Under the pieces are notes generated by a model that searched no databases, was not told the DNA's origin, and saw nothing but the letters and a program-made list of their open reading frames with translations. The position numbers were made by a program, and so were the translations under genes. A stretch of DNA of 13,451 nt from a virus (taxonomy: Duplodnaviria > Heunggongvirae > Uroviricota > Caudoviricetes). Position 1 is the first letter of the stretch, and each line of letters opens with the position of its first letter. The DNA lies in the IMG/VR virus record IMGVR_UViG_2565956627_000012, one strand, 5' to 3'. Positions 1 through 8,009 of the stretch are shown here, in pieces.

Positions 1-1239
1 ATGAGCAGGGCAATTCATAGACTTAGCGACACTCTTTTACGAAAATTAAGCGGATCACCAACCACAAAAAGCACCTTTTTTAATGATGGTGGCAATCTTA
101 GCGTAAGGCATTCAATCAATGGCCTGTTAACCTGGTATTTCACTTACAGGGCCGGAACTGGTAGGCAGATATCACCGGAACGTCTGAGGCTGGGCAATTA
201 TCCCGATCTGAGCCTGAAAGCTGCCAGGGAAAAAGCGGCACAGTGTCGCGCCTGGCTGGCTGAGGGGAAAAATCCGCGCTATGAACTTAATCATGCTGTA
301 CAGGACGCGTTAGCCCCCGTGACGGTTAAGGAAGCGCTCACTTACTGGCTTGAATCGTACGCAAAGGAAAAGCGCACTGACTACGAATCACTGAAAAGCC
401 GGATCAATAAACACATAATTAGCCAGATTGGCGCTATGCCACTGGAAAAATGCGAGCTACGCCACTGGCTGGCCTGTTTTGACCAGCTTGCTAAGCGTAA
501 TCCGGTATCAGCCGGATTTTTGCTACAGGTATGCAAACAGGCGCTTAAGTACTGCCGAAAACGACGATACGCAATCAGCAACGTTCTTGATGATATGGTC
601 GTAGGTGATGTGGGGAAAAAAGCAGAAATAAGTGAGCGTGTACTGACAAACAAAGAGCTTGGAGAACTACTCCGCGCACTGGATGAAAAAATCTTCCCGC
701 CGTACTACAGCGCCCTAATTCGCCTCCTGATTGTTTTTGGATGCCGTACCACTGAGCTAAGGCGCTCTGAGGTGCAGGAGTGGGATTTTAAGGAAATGCT
801 CTGGACAGTACCGAAGGAGCACAGCAAAACGAAGGTCGCCATATTCAGACCAATACCGGAAAGCATTCTGCCGTTCGTCACGCAGCTGGTGGAGAAGAAC
901 AGGCACACGGGCTTATTGCTTGGAGAACTGAAAGGGCAATCATCCGTAGCAGAGTACGGAAGAACAGCGCACAGACGAATTAATCAAGCCCCCTGGACGT
1001 TACACGATATCCGGCACACATTTACAACCATGCTGAACGATTTAGGCGTGGATCCGCATATTGTCGAGCAGCTTACAGCCCACCAGATGCCAGGGATGCA
1101 ACGCGTCTATAACCACTCCCGTTATCTTGATGCAAAACGTGATGCTCTTAATCTATGGGTAGACCGTCTCGAGCTTCTCCAGAACAATGATGAAAAAGTC
1201 GTTGTTATGACCCCACGAATTTACACCCAAAATTCTTGA
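1..1239 (+). CDS. int: Tyrosine recombinase / site-specific integrase (P4-type)
   Basis: 412-aa ORF starting with ATG at base 1. The C-terminal catalytic region carries the tyrosine-recombinase signature: conserved Arg in 'GCRTTELRRSE', the HxxR box 'LHDIRHTF', and a candidate nucleophile Tyr in 'RVYNHSRYLD'. The N-terminal arm resembles P4-like integrases. Confidence 0.9.
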   Translation: MSRAIHRLSDTLLRKLSGSPTTKSTFFNDGGNLSVRHSINGLLTWYFTYRAGTGRQISPERLRLGNYPDLSLKAAREKAAQCRAWLAEGKNPRYELNHAVQDALAPVTVKEALTYWLESYAKEKRTDYESLKSRINKHIISQIGAMPLEKCELRHWLACFDQLAKRNPVSAGFLLQVCKQALKYCRKRRYAISNVLDDMVVGDVGKKAEISERVLTNKELGELLRALDEKIFPPYYSALIRLLIVFGCRTTELRRSEVQEWDFKEMLWTVPKEHSKTKVAIFRPIPESILPFVTQLVEKNRHTGLLLGELKGQSSVAEYGRTAHRRINQAPWTLHDIRHTFTTMLNDLGVDPHIVEQLTAHQMPGMQRVYNHSRYLDAKRDALNLWVDRLELLQNNDEKVVVMTPRIYTQNS

Positions 1240-1280: not shown

Positions 1281-1648
1281 ATAAAACGCTAAATATCGGT
1301 CAAGTTCGTTAATTTTTTATTTTTCAACCATCGAAAAAATTGAAATGCACCCTACTAAACCCTTATTAGCTATTTCTTGATTGTTCCAATACCTGATGGT
1401 TTATCTGTTTGTTTTTAATGAGATAATTCAAGCGTAATGCCAAATGACGACATTTTTTGTTGCGTCGCTTAAAAACTCGTGACACGATTTTAAACACTAA
1501 CGAGCTTCTACGAACCTTAGCGAACAAAGCCTTTAGCAAGGTTGTGTTTTTAATTTAAGAGGTGAAAAAGAATCTAAGTAATATCCGATCTCATATATCT
1601 ACAGCTAAGAGAAAAGTTTATATACGTAATTTTTATGTAGGTTTTTGT

Positions 1649-1858
1649 ATGCGTGAAATAAATGAAGATCGCGTAATCCGTGAGGATGAATGTCGTAAGT
1701 TAACTGGAGTGTGTCGCACTACACGCTACGAACTGGAGAAAAAAGGATGCTTTCCGTCACGTCTTAATCTGGGCGGTCGTTCTGTTGGTTGGCTGCTGTC
1801 CGAGGTTATGGAATGGGTTAAAAGCCGGGATCGCATTAATTCAGGTAAGGCAGCGTAA
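1649..1858 (+). CDS. alpA: AlpA-family (prophage CP4-57 regulatory protein-like) helix-turn-helix transcriptional regulator
   Basis: 69 aa counted from the internal ATG at 1649, with AGG 8 nt upstream; the longer ORF begins with GTG at 1562. The motif 'LTGVCRTTRYELEKKGCFPSRLNLGGRSVGWLLSEVMEWV' matches the AlpA/MerR-like HTH pattern (GGR-x-VGW...E...W), as recalled from family knowledge. Confidence 0.8.
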   Translation: MREINEDRVIREDECRKLTGVCRTTRYELEKKGCFPSRLNLGGRSVGWLLSEVMEWVKSRDRINSGKAA

Positions 1859-3003: not shown

Positions 3004-3303
3004 ATGAAAAATAAAAATTCTGGCGTTACTGCCAGCGGCCCCGCTCGTCCTGAATTTATGAACGGCGATATTTACCGCGATAAATATGGCGGCATGGTAA
3101 CGATTAAAGGCGTGGCAGAACGGCGCATCACCTACCGCCGTGAAGGCTACGAATATGATTGCGTGATGCCTGTTTATCAGTTTCGGCGTGATTTTTCTCT
3201 GGTACAGGCAGCGCCCCGCAGTAAACCAACCAGCAGGGAGAAAGCACGCGCCAATATTCAGGAAATAAAAAAGATGCTTAACGTATTCAGGGGTAAAAAA
3301 TGA
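3004..3303 (+). CDS. Hypothetical protein (99 aa) immediately upstream of, and coupled to, the primase gene
   Basis: ATG at 3004 follows the upstream stop by 5 nt. Its stop overlaps the primase start (ATGA at 3300). Basic C-terminus. Confidence 0.5.
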   Translation: MKNKNSGVTASGPARPEFMNGDIYRDKYGGMVTIKGVAERRITYRREGYEYDCVMPVYQFRRDFSLVQAAPRSKPTSREKARANIQEIKKMLNVFRGKK

Positions 3304-5048
3304 AACTGGCACCGAACGTAAAAAAACAGCCACGCGGAATAAAACACAAAGACACAGAGGTAATTATTTTCGCGGGTAGTGATGCCTGGTCGCACGCGAA
3401 ACAATGGCAGGAGCAGGATGGCCCCGCATCCGGCGATAATGTGCCGCCTGTGTGGCTTGGGCCAAATCAGCTTGCCGAACTTGATGCGCTGAAAATTGTT
3501 CCGGATGGGAAAAAACGCGTAAGGCTGTACCAGGCCGGAGAACTGGATTTAGTGGAGACCAAAAAGATCGGTCAGAAGCTGGCGGCGGCAGATATTCAGG
3601 ATGCGAATTTTTACCCCGAAGGGGTGCACGGACAGAAATGTGAGAACTGGCGGCGCTATCTGAATGCTGAGCGTGAAAATATTGCCGCAGGGATCACCAT
3701 GCCGGAACAGAAAAAATCACAACTTTCACAGATGGCAGACAGTGAACGGGCACAGCTTCTTGCTTCCCGCTTTGATGGTGTCTGCGTCCATGCAGAAAGT
3801 GAAATCGTTCACGTATGGCGTGACGGGGTATGGTGTCCGGTCAGCACAATGGAACTGAGCCGCGAAATGGTGGCGGTTTATTCAGAACACGGGGCCACGT
3901 TCAGCAAGCGTGCAATTAATAACGCCGTTGAAGCGTTAAAAGTTATTGCTCAGCCAATGGGGGAGCCGTCCGGTGATTTGCTGCCGTTTGCCAATGGTGC
4001 GCTTGACCTGAGAACAGGGGAATTTTCCTCTCACCAGCCGGATAACTGGATCACCACACACAACGGCATTGAGTACACGCCGCCAGTACCAGGTGAGAAT
4101 ATCCGCGACAACGCGCCAAACTTTCATAAATGGCTTGATCACGCTGCCGGAAAAGACCCGGGCAAGATGATGCGCATATGTGCCGCGCTATACATGATTA
4201 TGGCGAACCGGTACGACTGGCAGATGTTTATTGAGGCCACCGGAGACGGCGGGAGCGGCAAGAGCACTTTCACGCACATAGCCAGCCTTCTGGCAGGGAA
4301 ACAGAACACCGTAAGCGCTGAGATGACATCACTCGATGATGCTGGTGGGCGTGCGCAGGTTGTCGGAAGTCGGCTTATTGTCCTGGCAGACCAGCCGAAA
4401 TATACAGGCGAAGGCACGGGCATCAAGAAAATCACGGGCGGCGACCCTGTGGAGATTAACCCGAAATATGAAAAGCGATTCACGACCATAATCAGGGCTG
4501 TGGTACTGGCGACCAACAACAACCCGATGATATTCACGGAACGGGCCGGAGGCGTGTCACGTCGTCGCGTGATTTTCCGTTTCGACAATATCGTCAGTGA
4601 GGCCGAAAAAGACAGAGAACTACCGGAAAAAATCGCGGCTGAAATCCCCGTCATTATCCGCCGCTTGCTGGCGAACTTTGCCAATCCTGAAAAGGCACGG
4701 GCTTTACTGATTGAGCAGCGTGACGGTGATGAAGCACTGGCAATAAAGCAACAGACGGATCCGGTTATTGAATTTTGCCAGTTCCTTAACTTTCTGGAAG
4801 AAGCACGCGGCCTGATGATGGGCGGCGGCGGTGACTCTTCCAGGTACACGACCAGAAACAGCCTTTACCGCGTCTATCTGGCGTTTATGGCGTATGTCGG
4901 CAGGAACAAGCCGCTGAACGTGGCTGAGTTCAGCAAAGCTATGAAGCCAGCGGCGAAAGTTTACGGACATGAATATATAACGCGCAGGATTAAAGGGATT
5001 ACGCAAACCAACGTGACAACAACAGACGACTGCGACGCGTTTTTATAA
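3300..5048 (+). CDS. Replication protein: primase / SF3-type helicase (phage-plasmid primase, P4-family-like C-terminal domain)
   Basis: 582 aa. Walker A P-loop 'GDGGSGKST' lies in the central/C-terminal part, and a Walker B-like 'RLIVLADQ' follows. Size and position (after alpA, before an iteron array) match satellite replication-initiator (Pri-Rep) genes. Confidence 0.85.
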   Translation: MKLAPNVKKQPRGIKHKDTEVIIFAGSDAWSHAKQWQEQDGPASGDNVPPVWLGPNQLAELDALKIVPDGKKRVRLYQAGELDLVETKKIGQKLAAADIQDANFYPEGVHGQKCENWRRYLNAERENIAAGITMPEQKKSQLSQMADSERAQLLASRFDGVCVHAESEIVHVWRDGVWCPVSTMELSREMVAVYSEHGATFSKRAINNAVEALKVIAQPMGEPSGDLLPFANGALDLRTGEFSSHQPDNWITTHNGIEYTPPVPGENIRDNAPNFHKWLDHAAGKDPGKMMRICAALYMIMANRYDWQMFIEATGDGGSGKSTFTHIASLLAGKQNTVSAEMTSLDDAGGRAQVVGSRLIVLADQPKYTGEGTGIKKITGGDPVEINPKYEKRFTTIIRAVVLATNNNPMIFTERAGGVSRRRVIFRFDNIVSEAEKDRELPEKIAAEIPVIIRRLLANFANPEKARALLIEQRDGDEALAIKQQTDPVIEFCQFLNFLEEARGLMMGGGGDSSRYTTRNSLYRVYLAFMAYVGRNKPLNVAEFSKAMKPAAKVYGHEYITRRIKGITQTNVTTTDDCDAFL

Positions 5049-5056
5049 TTTTAGAC

Positions 5057-5289
5057 AAAAGCCCTCTACCTCTTCTACCTTAAGAAAATAATTGCATATA
5101 TTTCATATGGATAGTTTTGGTAGATGGCAGGTAGAAGGCACTTAAAAGCCCTCTACACCCTCTACCATAATTCAGGGCATTTGTGAGGGGGTGGTAGATG
5201 ACAGGTAGAGGGCCAAAAAAGCCCTCTACCCCGCTGGAAACCGCGCCATTACTGACCTGAAAGATGATTAGGTAGAGAGGTAGAGGAGG
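5057..5289. repeat. Iteron array / putative origin of replication
   Basis: About 11 copies of the core CCTCTACC / GGTAGAGG in both orientations. Three copies of AAAAGCCCTCTAC(C/A) start at 5057, 5145 and 5217. Two copies of GGTAGATG(G/A)CAGGTAGA(A/G)GG sit at 5119-5138 and 5193-5212. An AT-rich block lies at 5081-5118. The array is directly downstream of the primase/helicase gene. Confidence 0.6.
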
Positions 5290-5334
5290 TGCACCACAAC
5301 CCAAAACTTTTTAAACACGAGGGTAAAAATAAAA

Positions 5335-5592
5335 ATGCACACTACAGAAAAACTTAACAATCAGAAGAAACCACACTACCGCGCTATTGACCTTACAGAG
5401 CACTGGCTGAGAGTGGCGATAAAAATCATCGACCGCAACACGGGGGAAGGATATGCGAAAGCACATCCTGAACTAATAAGCGCATTCATGACCACAGCGG
5501 CGGCAAACTTTGCCACGCTGACAGAACGGGAGATTGCCGAAGCGGAACAGGTAACAACCATCAACGTTAAAACCGGAGAGGTGGAATCATGA
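5335..5592 (+). CDS. Hypothetical protein (85 aa)
   Basis: ATG at 5335 with GAGGG upstream. Its stop overlaps the SSB-like start (ATGA). No recognisable motif. Confidence 0.5.
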   Translation: MHTTEKLNNQKKPHYRAIDLTEHWLRVAIKIIDRNTGEGYAKAHPELISAFMTTAAANFATLTEREIAEAEQVTTINVKTGEVES

Positions 5593-5999
5593 CAGCACAG
5601 ATAGCCGCTTACGGGCGGCTGGTGGCTGACCCGCAGTTAAAGACCACCAGCAAGGGCACACAAATGGCTATGGCAAGCATGGCGGTCCCCCTGCCGTGCA
5701 ATCAGGCAGATGACGGACAGGCGACGATGTGGTTATCCGTCCTGGCGTTTGGCAGACAGGCCGACGCACTGGCAAAACACCACAAAGGCGAGCTGGTGAG
5801 CGTGGCGGGTAACATGCAGGTAAGCCAGTGGACAGGCCAGAACGGCGAAACGCGGCAGGGCTGGCAGGTTATTGCAGACAGCGTAATCAGTGCCAGAACG
5901 GCGCGACCTGGTGGGAGCCGACGCAAGACCACAGGCACACAGGGTAATCAGCCACCAGCGGGAGGCGATGACCCTTACGGTGATGATATTCCGTTCTGA
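5589..5999 (+). CDS. ssb: Single-stranded DNA-binding protein (short SSB-like, OB-fold with acidic C-terminal tip)
   Basis: 136 aa. The N-terminus 'IAAYGRLVADPQLKTT...MAMASMAV' parallels the SSB OB-fold start. A Gly/Pro-rich linker 'RPGGSRRKTTGTQGNQPPAGG' is followed by the hallmark SSB tail 'DDPYGDDIPF' at the extreme C-terminus. Confidence 0.7.
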   Translation: MTAQIAAYGRLVADPQLKTTSKGTQMAMASMAVPLPCNQADDGQATMWLSVLAFGRQADALAKHHKGELVSVAGNMQVSQWTGQNGETRQGWQVIADSVISARTARPGGSRRKTTGTQGNQPPAGGDDPYGDDIPF

Positions 6000-6009
6000 G
6001 AGGGTGACG

Positions 6010-6267
6010 ATGGTACATGACCGCATAGCGGAAGAACTCGAGGCGAAAGGCTTTTACCGGAGAGCGTCGGCGCGATGGGGTGAAGTCATGCTACTGGTGG
6101 AGACAGACAAGGAACGGGAGCACATCACGATGCGACGGCTGGAATGTTGCAGAAAATCGACAAGGCCAGCACTCGGGCCGGACAATTTCAGCGATATTAA
6201 AAAAGCCGCTGATCGTGTTTATGCTGAAATGGGATTAGATAAATTAAAGGGGGAAACATGCCAGTAA
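6010..6267 (+). CDS. Small regulator-like protein, possibly PerC-family transcriptional activator
   Basis: 85 aa from the ATG at 6010, with GAGAGGG upstream. 'IAEELEAKGFYRRASARWGEVM...DKEREHITMRRLEC' resembles, from memory, the conserved core of PerC/Pch-like prophage regulators. Not verified by search. Confidence 0.4.
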   Translation: MVHDRIAEELEAKGFYRRASARWGEVMLLVETDKEREHITMRRLECCRKSTRPALGPDNFSDIKKAADRVYAEMGLDKLKGETCQ

Positions 6268-6518
6268 CCACAGAGGAAATTAAACGACACCGCGAATTAT
6301 TCGGCCTTGAACATCCGGCCCACACGACAACGGAGCGTTATCGCCAGCACCTGGCGGCGGGGGCGATATTCTGGGTTGATCATCATGGTTTTTTACGCAG
6401 CACGCTTTCCGGTGAAATTCTGGCGGCTGGTCCTGAACAGATTGATGCGCTCATCGCATATCTGGAAAAGGTGAAGCCCCGCACAGTGCAATCAGTACCA
6501 CCGGAAGACGTTAATTAA
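6258..6518 (+). CDS. Hypothetical protein (86 aa)
   Basis: ATG at 6258 preceded by a strong RBS AAGGGGG. It overlaps the upstream stop and is followed by a strong intrinsic terminator. Confidence 0.5.
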   Translation: MPVTTEEIKRHRELFGLEHPAHTTTERYRQHLAAGAIFWVDHHGFLRSTLSGEILAAGPEQIDALIAYLEKVKPRTVQSVPPEDVN

Positions 6519-6521
6519 TGG

Positions 6522-6552
6522 CCCAGCCCTGGTTTAACCAGGGCTTTTTTTG
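6522..6552 (+). terminator. Rho-independent terminator closing the replication/early operon
   Basis: Stem AGCCCTGG (6525-6532), loop TTTAA, stem CCAGGGCT (6538-6545), then a run of T at 6546-6551. Confidence 0.65.
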
Positions 6553-6575
6553 TCAGCTTTTGTAAATTATTTGTG

Positions 6576-6595
6576 CGTGGTTGTTCGTGGTTGTT
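6576..6595. repeat. Tandem direct repeat, 2 x CGTGGTTGTT
   Basis: Two perfect adjacent 10-bp copies in the leader upstream of the capsid gene. Confidence 0.3.
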
Positions 6596-6673
6596 CAGCG
6601 GCATGGCTGGCTTATTTTATCAGGCCCGAACCGTGGTTATTCTCGCCACTGTTGCCAGGACGCTGGGACCATT

Positions 6674-6712
6674 TTCCCGCCTGTTAATCTCATCAGCGTT
6701 AACAGGCGGGAA
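6674..6712. promoter_or_regulatory. 14-bp perfect inverted repeat TTCCCGCCTGTTAA-N11-TTAACAGGCGGGAA in the capsid-operon leader
   Basis: Perfect dyad at 6674-6687 and 6699-6712. No T-run follows on either strand, so a terminator is unlikely. It sits about 90 nt upstream of the capsid ATG and is a candidate operator, activator site or RNA structure. Confidence 0.35.
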
Positions 6713-6801
6713 GCCTGCATCGGTGTGCATTTCTTTTTGTTCTCGTACCGTGAGTCTTGCCGCGTCCTGGTGTTTTCCTCTTTGCATCAGGACTTTTTTT
6801 T

Positions 6802-7974
6802 ATGCCGAGAATTATCGAATTGCGCCAGCAGAAAACCGCCATCAAAAATCAGATGCGCGACATGCTGGAGAACGCGGAAAAAGAAAACCGCAGCCTTAAC
6901 GACGCCGAGGGCGCAAAATTTGACGAATTACGCGCTAAAGCTGAATCCCTCGATAAAGACATTTCCCGCCTTGAAGCCGTTGCCGACGAAGAGCGCAGCA
7001 AGCCAGGTAAAGCCAGCCAGACCACTGACCCCGCAGAACTTCGCAACTACATCGTAACGGGTGACGTTCGCTCATTATCCACCACCACCAACGGCGGCAA
7101 GGACGGTGGTTATACCGTTATCCCTGAGCTTGATCGCGAGGTTATGCGGTTACTGAGTGATGAAAGCGTCATGCGAATGATTGCGACCGTGAAAACGGCG
7201 AAATCAAACGAATATCAGAAACTGGTTTCCACAGGTGGCGCGGCTGTAAATTATGGAACCGAGGGCAGCAAGCGTAACGAAACCAACACCCCGAAAGTTG
7301 AGCGCGTAAGCATCAAACTTAACCCGATCTATGCCTACCCGAAAACCACACAGGAAATTCTGGATTTTTCAGAGGTGGACGTACTGGGCTGGTTATCGTC
7401 TGAAATCGCCGATACGTTCGCCACGACCGAAGAAGATGATTTTGTAAATGGTAATGGTACTGGCAAGCCGAAAGGTTTCCTGAGTTACAACCGAGATCTA
7501 ACCAACGACAAAACCCGCGCCTTTGGCACCATTGAAAAAATGGTAGCAGCAGCCGAAGCCGCCATTACAGCGGACGAACTGATCGACATCCTCTACAAGC
7601 TGAAAGCGAAATACCGTAAGAACGCCGTATGGGTGATGAACTCGAGCACAGCGGCAGCATTGCAGAAGCTGAAAAACCAGATCGGTGATTACGTATGGCG
7701 TGACAGCCTCAAAGAGGGCGCACCTGACACATTGCTGGGCCGTCCTGTTTATTACCTGGAAAGTATGCCGGACATCGGCAAAGGCAAAACGCCGCTGGCT
7801 GTCGGTGACTTTAAGCGCGGTTATTTCATCGTTGACCATGAAACGGGTATTCGTACCCGACCGGACAACATTACAGAGCCGGGTTTCTACAAGGTACACA
7901 CGGACAAATACATCGGCGGCGGGGTTGTTGACTCCCGCGCGATAAAAGTCCTCGAGATGAAAAACGGCGGTTAA
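6802..7974 (+). CDS. Major capsid protein, HK97 family, with N-terminal coiled-coil delta (scaffold-like) domain
   Basis: 390 aa from the ATG at 6802; the six-frame ORF starts at an upstream TTG. The N-terminal roughly 100 aa is charged and helical (delta-domain-like). The remainder has HK97-fold MCP character. No separate scaffold gene is present, consistent with HK97-type assembly. Confidence 0.85.
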   Translation: MPRIIELRQQKTAIKNQMRDMLENAEKENRSLNDAEGAKFDELRAKAESLDKDISRLEAVADEERSKPGKASQTTDPAELRNYIVTGDVRSLSTTTNGGKDGGYTVIPELDREVMRLLSDESVMRMIATVKTAKSNEYQKLVSTGGAAVNYGTEGSKRNETNTPKVERVSIKLNPIYAYPKTTQEILDFSEVDVLGWLSSEIADTFATTEEDDFVNGNGTGKPKGFLSYNRDLTNDKTRAFGTIEKMVAAAEAAITADELIDILYKLKAKYRKNAVWVMNSSTAAALQKLKNQIGDYVWRDSLKEGAPDTLLGRPVYYLESMPDIGKGKTPLAVGDFKRGYFIVDHETGIRTRPDNITEPGFYKVHTDKYIGGGVVDSRAIKVLEMKNGG

Positions 7975-7982
7975 CAGAAAAA

Positions 7983-8009
7983 GGGGCTAAAAAGCCCCTT
8001 TGGTGTTTT
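7983..8009 (+). terminator. Putative intrinsic terminator/attenuator between capsid and protease genes
   Basis: GGGGCT-AAAA-AGCCCC hairpin at 7983-7998 followed by the T-rich TTTGGTGTTTT. The 6-bp stem is short, so termination is probably partial. Confidence 0.45.

Follow-up and report, generated by a model that had tools for sequence, protein, structure and literature searches.

In the 13,451-nucleotide (nt) stretch of viral DNA analysed here (IMG/VR record IMGVR_UViG_2565956627_000012, hereafter the window), positions 6553–6801 separate an upstream gene block from the gene of the major capsid protein. We read this segment as the late promoter of the capsid and packaging genes together with a folded 5′ leader RNA, the central hairpin of which (P2) is formed by a perfect 14-bp dyad; judged from the sequence and its relatives, the probability of this reading is about 0.6. 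The window is a capsid-forming phage-inducible chromosomal island (cf-PICI) of the EcCIEDL933/Sakai Sp7 type. Islands of this kind make their own capsids and take only the tails from helper phages, and EcCIEDL933 has been reported to make capsids upon overexpression of alpA alone; hence, the control of capsid production is internal to the island, and a helper-phage factor is not strictly needed in this prototype. An original prediction, made from the same DNA, had tentatively placed the switch-on site for capsid production in the segment and had suggested the dyad as its operator. The first part is retained here, the segment being the control region of the capsid/packaging operon, while the second is not.

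The repeats themselves are present as described. The arms of the dyad, TTCCCGCCTGTTAA (6674–6687) and TTAACAGGCGGGAA (6699–6712), are complementary at 14/14 positions and lie 11 nt apart. No other short-loop inverted repeat in the 13.4-kb window is as long, and a length of 14 bp was reached in 0/100 first-order Markov randomisations, the maximum being 12 bp (once). The tandem direct repeat CGTGGTTGTTC (6576–6586 and 6586–6596) and the strong upstream terminator (stem 6525–6545, followed by a T-run) were found as well. The open reading frames (ORFs) 6573–6899 and 6581–7057, already suspected to be spurious, are indeed so, since nothing corresponding to them exists in the homologous leader of Sakai Sp7, and the same applies to ORF 6620–6787 on the minus strand; with the ORFs crossing the leader not conserved in Sp7, a leader peptide was rejected. 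The statement that the dyad, lacking a T-run, is not a terminator is correct for the dyad itself; what had been missed is a second hairpin (P3, 6764–6772/6785–6793) with eight T (6794–6801) that abut the capsid ATG at 6802.

Two classes of leader are distinguished here. Class 1 comprises the leader of the window and that of Sp7 (EDL933 lineage), while class 2 is a sister type and the commoner one. The class-1 leader of the window is predicted to form the hairpins P1, P2 and P3 and a small further hairpin (Table 1). P3 has the make-up of an intrinsic terminator, i.e., a G+C-rich hairpin directly followed by a U-tract, and its 3′ arm holds the only Shine-Dalgarno-like sequence of the leader (AGGA, 6789–6792), 9 nt before the AUG. 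The P1 segment CCAGGACGC (6655–6663) is at the same time the 5′ partner of an alternative (anti-P3) helix; it is complementary, 9/9, to GCGUCCUGG (6762–6770), a segment that shares positions with the 5′ arm of P3 and includes a CGUC able to pair with the P1 loop. The two pairings are mutually exclusive, and the alternative one, which had likewise been missed in the original prediction, would remove the terminator.

Thermodynamic predictions are in line with a structured RNA. The window leader folds more stably than its shuffles (z = −3.95 for 284 nt and −4.49 for 168 nt), as does the Sp7 leader (z = −3.88), and the alternative helix is part of the minimum-free-energy fold in the window. In constrained folds of the window, the terminator (−59.3 kcal/mol) and the anti-terminator conformation (−60.2 kcal/mol) are nearly isoenergetic, while the corresponding values for Sp7 are −66.9 and −58.0 kcal/mol. 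Based on these energies, the Sp7 prototype would be OFF by default and the window copy balanced.

Homology of the window to other Escherichia coli genomes begins at ~6547, right behind the upstream terminator, and extends into the capsid gene; thus, the leader appears as a module that travels with the capsid operon. A full-length leader is present in 354 of the 5426 complete E. coli genomes at ~74% identity, in all cases of the EDL933/Sp7 type and including O157:H7 Sakai and EDL933, and a further E. coli group has only the first 50 nt of the leader in common. Scans of IMG/VR and metagenomes with leader patterns yielded only two class-1 lineages, one represented by the window and the other by Sp7, the latter with a few single-nucleotide variants; the 14-mer scan gave mostly chance matches.

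Conservation in related islands, which the original prediction had named as a check on the dyad, was found, with both the dyad and the repeats kept in the homologous islands. A comparison of the two class-1 lineages gives 91–100% identity for the helices and for both alternative-pairing segments, with the 3′ arm of P3 as the exception (78%, 7/9), and 58–67% identity for loops and linkers, which carry indels. The alternative-pairing segments are invariant in both lineages, although the intervening linker has indels and an identity of 67%. The Sp7 form of P1 reads GUGGU-G-CCAG-GACG-CUGG-G-GCCAC, the outer stem of which is degenerate in the window. P2 of Sp7 retains the basal 10 bp (TTCCCGCCTG/CAGGCGGGAA), but its apical stem is re-registered (TAATG/CATTA after a mismatch); the loop, which is 11 nt long in the window, measures 14 nt there and 18 nt in one variant. 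Consequently, the conserved half-sites TTCCCGCCTG and CAGGCGGGAA lie 19 nt apart in the window, 26 nt in the EDL933/Sp7 lineage, and 30 nt in one variant. This variable half-site spacing, together with the re-registration of the inner stem, fits a hairpin, which would tolerate it, and not a double-stranded DNA site for a dimeric protein, which would not. A common Sp7-type variant has a C to T change in the 5′ arm of the dyad, resulting in a G-U pair in the RNA. The small hairpin has a counterpart in Sp7 around the conserved AUCGGUG, in another register and without the U-run. Sp7 retains the stem and the U-tract of P3, with a loop that has diverged, and in one variant (L231) a CC to UU change in P3 is accompanied by the restoration of one pair.

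Upstream of the hairpins lies an array of four TTGT-containing units in helical phase, units 1–2 being TTTTGTAAATTATTTGT and units 3–4 the two copies of CGTGGTTGTTC. The array is 90% identical between the class-1 lineages and, by its sequence organisation, is a probable activator-binding or upstream promoter element; its tandem repeat is a better candidate for an activator site than the dyad. A third copy of CGTGGTTGTTC (10/11 matches, 6632–6642) was rejected as a conserved repeat, what is kept there being the −10-like TATTCTCGCC. The array has no second copy elsewhere in the window, the int–alpA region included, and on these grounds AlpA was rejected as the array-binding protein.

For comparison of the promoters, 32 class-2 and two class-1 upstream regions were aligned on the first base of P1. 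All leader classes share the motif (G/T)TTT(A/T)C-N16-TAT(T/C)(C/T)T at a fixed distance, P1 starting ~7 nt past the −10 element; in the window, the transcription start is predicted at ~6649–6651. Furthermore, 32 diverged leaders from many genera of Enterobacterales have the first half of the array, TTTTGTAAAT(T)ATTTGT, located ~90 nt ahead of P1. This half is followed by two 10–11-bp units of lineage-specific sequence: CGTGGTTGTTC in E. coli, CATGTTTACC in Rosenbergiella, CATGATTAC in Serratia, and TTC(C)TACTCC in Leclercia. The upstream array module is common to E. coli islands with otherwise different leaders. In E. coli 042 (L084), a convergent gene separates the upstream block from the module, which, therefore, needs a promoter of its own.

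Most relatives of the capsid gene—in other genera of Enterobacterales, in other E. coli islands, and in all of the 80 best IMG/VR matches—carry the class-2 leader. Class-2 P1 (GUGGC-A-CUCA-GACG-UGAG-CC-GCCAC) is nearly invariant from Proteus to E. coli and is directly followed by a G+C-rich P2 of variable sequence and by a C/U-rich linker; P3 (UGGUUUC...GGAAACCA) covers the Shine-Dalgarno region and has no U-tract. Covariation was assessed on 32 diverged class-2 sequences against shuffles and shifted registers. Pairing in P1 is complete (100%) and includes 3 covarying pairs, and at the base of P2 double (compensatory) changes occur at 8/8 basal pairs; no shuffle equalled the paired fraction or the covariation score, and shifted registers were 34–52% paired. 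In addition, AGACGUGA, made up of the loop and the 3′ arm of P1, is complementary to UCACGUCU of P3, with 96.9% of the cells paired. This pairing shows one compensatory U-A to G-C change in four sequences (Serratia and Leclercia types), in which the P1 stem is altered, too.

The two classes are linked by their 5′ portions. The GACG loop of P1 is common to both, and the EDL933 type also has the same GUGG/CCAC outer stem and a covarying inner stem; in either class, a CGUC at P3 is the counterpart of the GACG loop. The class-2 arrangement of a GACG-loop P1 followed at once by a G+C-rich P2 is also found in the window (6655–6666 and 6674–6712). With a covariance model (R1) built from the class-2 alignment (A6) and used with its filters off, P1 and P2 align onto the class-1 P1 and the dyad, with scores of 23.4 bits (Sp7) and 7.9 bits (window), the P3 part staying unaligned. 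The picture that emerges is that of a shared 5′ domain and different 3′ expression platforms.

Beside these classes, a third, unrelated leader type was noticed ~200 nt upstream of the capsid ATG in Xenorhabdus (L054, L066, L073, and L080) and Photorhabdus (L077), without a GACG-type P1. By inspection only, a segment near its 5′ end (ACATGTAGG) is complementary to CCTACATG, which overlaps a hairpin covering the Shine-Dalgarno sequence (CCTGCATG...CATGCAGAGG); likewise by inspection, a G+C-rich central hairpin (GCGGTAGT...ACTACCGC) lies between the complementary segments, amounting to the same three-segment logic. In a Symbiopectobacterium locus (L051, 2153–2313), an isolated near-perfect copy of class-2 P1 (GTGGCACTCAGACGTGA...) lies ~700–850 nt upstream of a capsid gene with another leader type and may be the remnant of a leader exchange.

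From these elements, a mechanism can be proposed. An island-encoded activator would dock at the TTGT array (6558–6596) before the weak sigma-70 promoter, and transcription from ~6650 would yield P1, P2, and P3, in this order. In the OFF fold, composed of P1, P2, and P3, transcription would halt at the U-tract, and read-through mRNA would be poorly translated. In the ON fold, CCAGGACGC would pair with GCGUCCUGG, with the contact of the GACG loop and CGUC as the probable nucleus; P3 would be prevented, the polymerase would proceed, and the ribosome-binding site would be free. The dyad would act as a rigid, sequence-tolerant hairpin that joins two distant partners and perhaps serves as a protein-binding platform, too. 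A more far-reaching version, which we put forward tentatively as a possibility, has P1–P2 as the sensor domain of an undescribed family of cis-regulatory RNAs common to capsid-forming satellites across Enterobacterales. Coupled to a terminator platform (class 1) or a Shine-Dalgarno-hiding platform (class 2), the sensor would be flipped by a specific factor, with the phrog_1957 protein as a candidate; capsid production would then be licensed after transcription starts and only on island induction.

Several points weigh against a promoter with a folded, switching leader. The start site, termination at P3, and the switch, including its trigger, are predictions. The promoter is weak by consensus (7/12 matches) and was not called by the promoter scan; a weak consensus match would, on the other hand, fit an activator-dependent promoter. 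The terminator scan did not call P3, the loop of which, with 10–12 nt, is long for an intrinsic terminator. The class-1 leader is known in two lineages only, with almost no covariation within the class. The alternative helix is invariant in class 1, which speaks neither for nor against it, and several single-nucleotide variants (L272, L445, L277, and L265) break pairs of P2 or P3. The wobble counts (12 G-U versus 14 A-C) do not indicate which strand folds. Finally, R1 with default filters gave no match to the class-1 leader, and the unfiltered score of the window leader, 7.9 bits, is weak.

Among the other explanations, a unit resembling lambda PR′-tR′ survives best, though we consider it unlikely. 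It would consist of a constitutive promoter and a ~150-nt leader RNA ending at P3 and U8, with an island-encoded, Q-like factor that is loaded at the promoter or the array and renders RNA polymerase resistant to terminators; the RNA pairing would be incidental, and the short RNA might be regulatory in the manner of StxS. The order of promoter, short leader, and terminator directly before late genes is as expected for such a unit, the Sp7 terminator fold is favoured by ~9 kcal/mol, and a terminator-like hairpin is also found after the capsid gene (7980–8001). Precedents are the Q proteins, the Pseudomonas aeruginosa AlpA antiterminator, and the StxS RNA from PR′. However, the ORFs scanned gave no Q-like Pfam match, and the AlpA of the island is unrelated to the Pseudomonas antiterminator of the same name. 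Class-2 leaders keep P1, P2, and a P3 that occludes the Shine-Dalgarno sequence but lack the U-tract; hence, the common function looks like ribosome access or RNA folding and not like termination as such. Moreover, both classes have preserved a P1 that is complementary to the P3 region.

Less credible is the view that the hairpins are mere stability or processing elements, protecting the capsid mRNA from RNase E or providing an RNase III site without any switch; this we regard as improbable. Phage late mRNAs often bear 5′ stem-loops of such function, and P1 at the predicted 5′ end as well as the very stable P2 would suit it. This view leaves unexplained, however, why a U8-flanked P3 lies over the Shine-Dalgarno sequence, why the complementarity between P1 and the P3 region is conserved in both classes, and why P1 is near-invariant from Proteus to E. 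coli, and a 14-bp stem is short for RNase III.

Rated still somewhat lower, and quite improbable, is the dyad as a double-stranded DNA operator at which a dimeric regulator—Ogr/Delta-like, AlpA, PerC, or a helper-phage protein—activates capsid transcription. A perfect palindrome, outer 10-bp half-sites that are kept in both lineages, and several small regulators encoded by the island speak for it. Against it, the half-site spacing is 19, 26, or 30 nt among the variants; the dyad lies 31–69 nt downstream of the −10 block, ~25–60 nt past the predicted start; its motif is not repeated elsewhere in the island; and the class-2 equivalent varies in sequence yet keeps its pairing. The resemblance to Ogr/Delta dyads that had been suggested is not borne out either, the TGT-N17-ACA of the window differing in spacing from TGT-N12-ACA, quite apart from the variable half-site distance and the position behind the −10 block.

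A DNA-level hairpin, acting for instance as a cruciform or packaging signal or as a site where the island primase initiates on single-stranded DNA, is highly improbable: the island does encode a primase and an SSB, and the wobble statistics (12 G-U versus 14 A-C) would be compatible with it, but the element accompanies the capsid gene rather than the replication module, is placed between a promoter-like block and a start codon, and is not where, judging from the organisation of HK97 and PICIs, cos (near HNH/terS) and the origin (after the primase) would be expected.

As for the proteins that may act on the promoter with its folded leader, two genes upstream are of interest. A PerC-family protein is encoded in the four E. 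coli islands compared in full (the window, L082, L083, and L084), remains as a degraded 27-residue trace in a Shigella locus (L015), and is absent from the loci of other genera; the CGTGGTTGTTC-type repeat has the same E. coli/Shigella distribution as PerC. The PerC/PchE homologue is a candidate activator of the E. coli-type array. The product of the phrog_1957 gene is conserved across genera, and the gene is located within 3 kb upstream of the capsid gene in 21/29 loci with GACG-type leaders versus 4/51 others, an association confounded by phylogeny; its predicted fold matches no solved structure. As a lead only, it is a candidate trans-acting partner of the promoter or the leader.

Homologues of both RgdR (DUF4222 family, 3004–3303) and PchE (PerC family, 6010–6267) are encoded in the window. 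The only role described for these two proteins is cross-activation of the LEE1 virulence promoter in enterohaemorrhagic E. coli (EHEC), and we infer that their native targets may be this satellite control region.

The layout of the island is the same as in the prototype EcCIEDL933 (CP-933C, Sakai Sp7, O-island 51). The capsid gene is the first gene of the packaging operon, in which the HK97-type capsid gene is followed by those for protease, portal, head completion, HNH, TerS, and TerL. Parts of the window are identical to the island of E. coli ZH063, which sits between uvrB and bioD. The features of the leader region and the genes upstream of it are listed in Table 1.

Table 1. Coordinates of the leader elements and of the neighbouring features in the window.
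Feature	Position	Strand	Remarks
Intrinsic terminator ending the upstream (replication/PerC) block	6525–6552	+	9-bp G+C-rich stem, then T-run
Four TTGT-containing units in helical phase	6558–6596	+	TTGT at 6560, 6571, 6581, 6591
Candidate sigma-70 late promoter	6616–6643	+	−35 TTTATC 6616–6621; 16-nt spacer; −10 TATTCT 6638–6643
P1 hairpin CCAG-GACG-CUGG, GACG loop	6655–6666	+	100% identical between class-1 lineages
P2, 14-bp dyad with 11-nt loop, central stable hairpin	6674–6712	+	basal 10 bp conserved
Small hairpin UGCAU-CGGU-GUGCA, then U-rich stretch	6716–6741	+	
GCGUCCUGG, 3′ partner of the alternative helix	6762–6770	+	9/9 complementary to 6655–6663
P3, terminator-like hairpin GUCCUGGUG/CAUCAGGAC + U8	6764–6772/6785–6793, U8 6794–6801	+	9–10 bp
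Major capsid protein gene, HK97 fold family	6802–7974	+	Pfam Phage_capsid, E = 2.5e-70; RefSeq annotation in ZH063
86-aa protein, phrog_1957	6258–6518	+	directly upstream of leader region
PerC/Pch-family regulator, PchE homologue	6010–6267	+	Pfam PerC, E = 7e-36
SSB	5589–5999		
D5/P4-alpha-type primase	3300–5048		
DUF4222 protein	3004–3303		family of the known regulator RgdR
Icd-like region	between AlpA and DUF4222 genes		
AlpA-family helix-turn-helix protein	within 1562–1858		small Pfam Phage_AlpA family
Tyrosine integrase (int)	1–1239		

Some further observations concern the island as a whole. The window is identical to the ZH063 island (L001) over ~1–2580 and 5921–7160, the leader included, while divergence and indels are found elsewhere, e.g., in the primase region and at scattered spots in the packaging genes. 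The window capsid protein has ~82% identity to capsids behind class-2 leaders versus 69% to the Sp7-type capsid, as measured on the Shigella locus L015. On the sequence level, the island is a recombinant mosaic. The ORF at 1870–2778 (302 aa) has a C-terminal part resembling the host cell-division inhibitor Icd and 200 N-terminal residues without a Pfam match; its ZH063 counterpart is annotated as several Icd-like fragments and pseudogenes. Behind the primase gene, a 286-nt non-coding gap (5049–5334) contains a 10-bp inverted repeat (5204–5213/5221–5230), the second-longest short-loop inverted repeat in the window, and may be the replication origin of the island. A G+C-rich hairpin of 9 bp (AAAGGGGCT-AAAA-AGCCCCTTT, 7980–8001) that separates the capsid gene from the protease gene has T-rich flanks on both strands and could be a partial terminator that sets the capsid:protease ratio.

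The promoter with its folded leader was finally compared with known regulatory systems. No family of Rfam 15 matches the leader, the only match in its vicinity being a sub-threshold sroD-like one on the upstream terminator (25 bits versus a cut-off of 50), and five related loci, among them one Sp7-type class-1 and two class-2 leaders, gave no Rfam 15 match. The known EHEC small RNA Esr41 was rejected as a relative, as it maps to O-island 43/48 and not to this island, and the EcOnc supplementary tables do not mention Sp7. The cf-PICI literature, as far as searchable, does not discuss a promoter, terminator, or leader of the packaging operon, nor how the operon is switched on. The segment provides a concrete, testable control region for the cf-PICI packaging operon, comprising a promoter architecture, a folded leader, and a sister version across many Enterobacterales; if the switch is real, it would constitute a new RNA motif and offer a means to control the production of satellite particles.

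With the Ogr/Delta-dependent late promoters of P2/P4 (TGT-N12-ACA near −55), the segment has in common that a satellite late promoter is associated with a TGT...ACA dyad; it differs in that the window dyad has the form TGT-N17-ACA, lies downstream of the −10 element, has a variable arm spacing, and is hairpin-like. An Ogr/Delta zinc-finger activator found no Pfam match in scans covering the main ORFs between int and the capsid gene only. The segment may also resemble the put RNA of HK022, an HK97-related phage; this cis-acting antiterminator has two stem-loops right after a promoter, in an HK97-type genetic context, and terminators downstream. The class-2 cf-PICI leader shares with class 1 the GACG-type P1, the following P2, a P3 over the Shine-Dalgarno sequence, the CGUC at P3, and the upstream promoter architecture; it differs in its P3 sequence, in lacking a U-tract, and in an alternative pairing that involves the 3′ arm of P1 in place of the 5′ arm.

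The closest known kinds are the terminator/anti-terminator attenuators and the lambdoid PR′-tR′ late unit. Like lambdoid PR′-qut-tR′ (6S RNA, StxS) with Q, and like the P. aeruginosa AlpA antiterminator, the segment has a promoter, a short structured leader, and a terminator before late structural genes, with a regulator made earlier in the same element. It differs from these in its sister leaders without a U-tract and in an AlpA of another family; the Pseudomonas analogy was rejected, that protein being unrelated to the small Pfam Phage_AlpA protein of the island. The Q family had no Pfam match among the ORFs scanned; neither a Q-binding element nor a sigma-dependent pause signal was identified, though no search for a pause element was made. 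Attenuators and riboswitch-type platforms (trp, pyr, bgl, T-box) are resembled in a hairpin with a U-tract before the first gene, an upstream segment able to pair with the 5′ arm of this hairpin, a ribosome-binding site inside the hairpin, and a conserved 5′ domain with alternative 3′ platforms; the class-1 leader differs in having neither a conserved leader peptide nor an Rfam match and in that its two folds are predicted. By analogy, the combination of a shared 5′ domain with exchangeable platforms would follow the pattern of riboswitch-like regulators.

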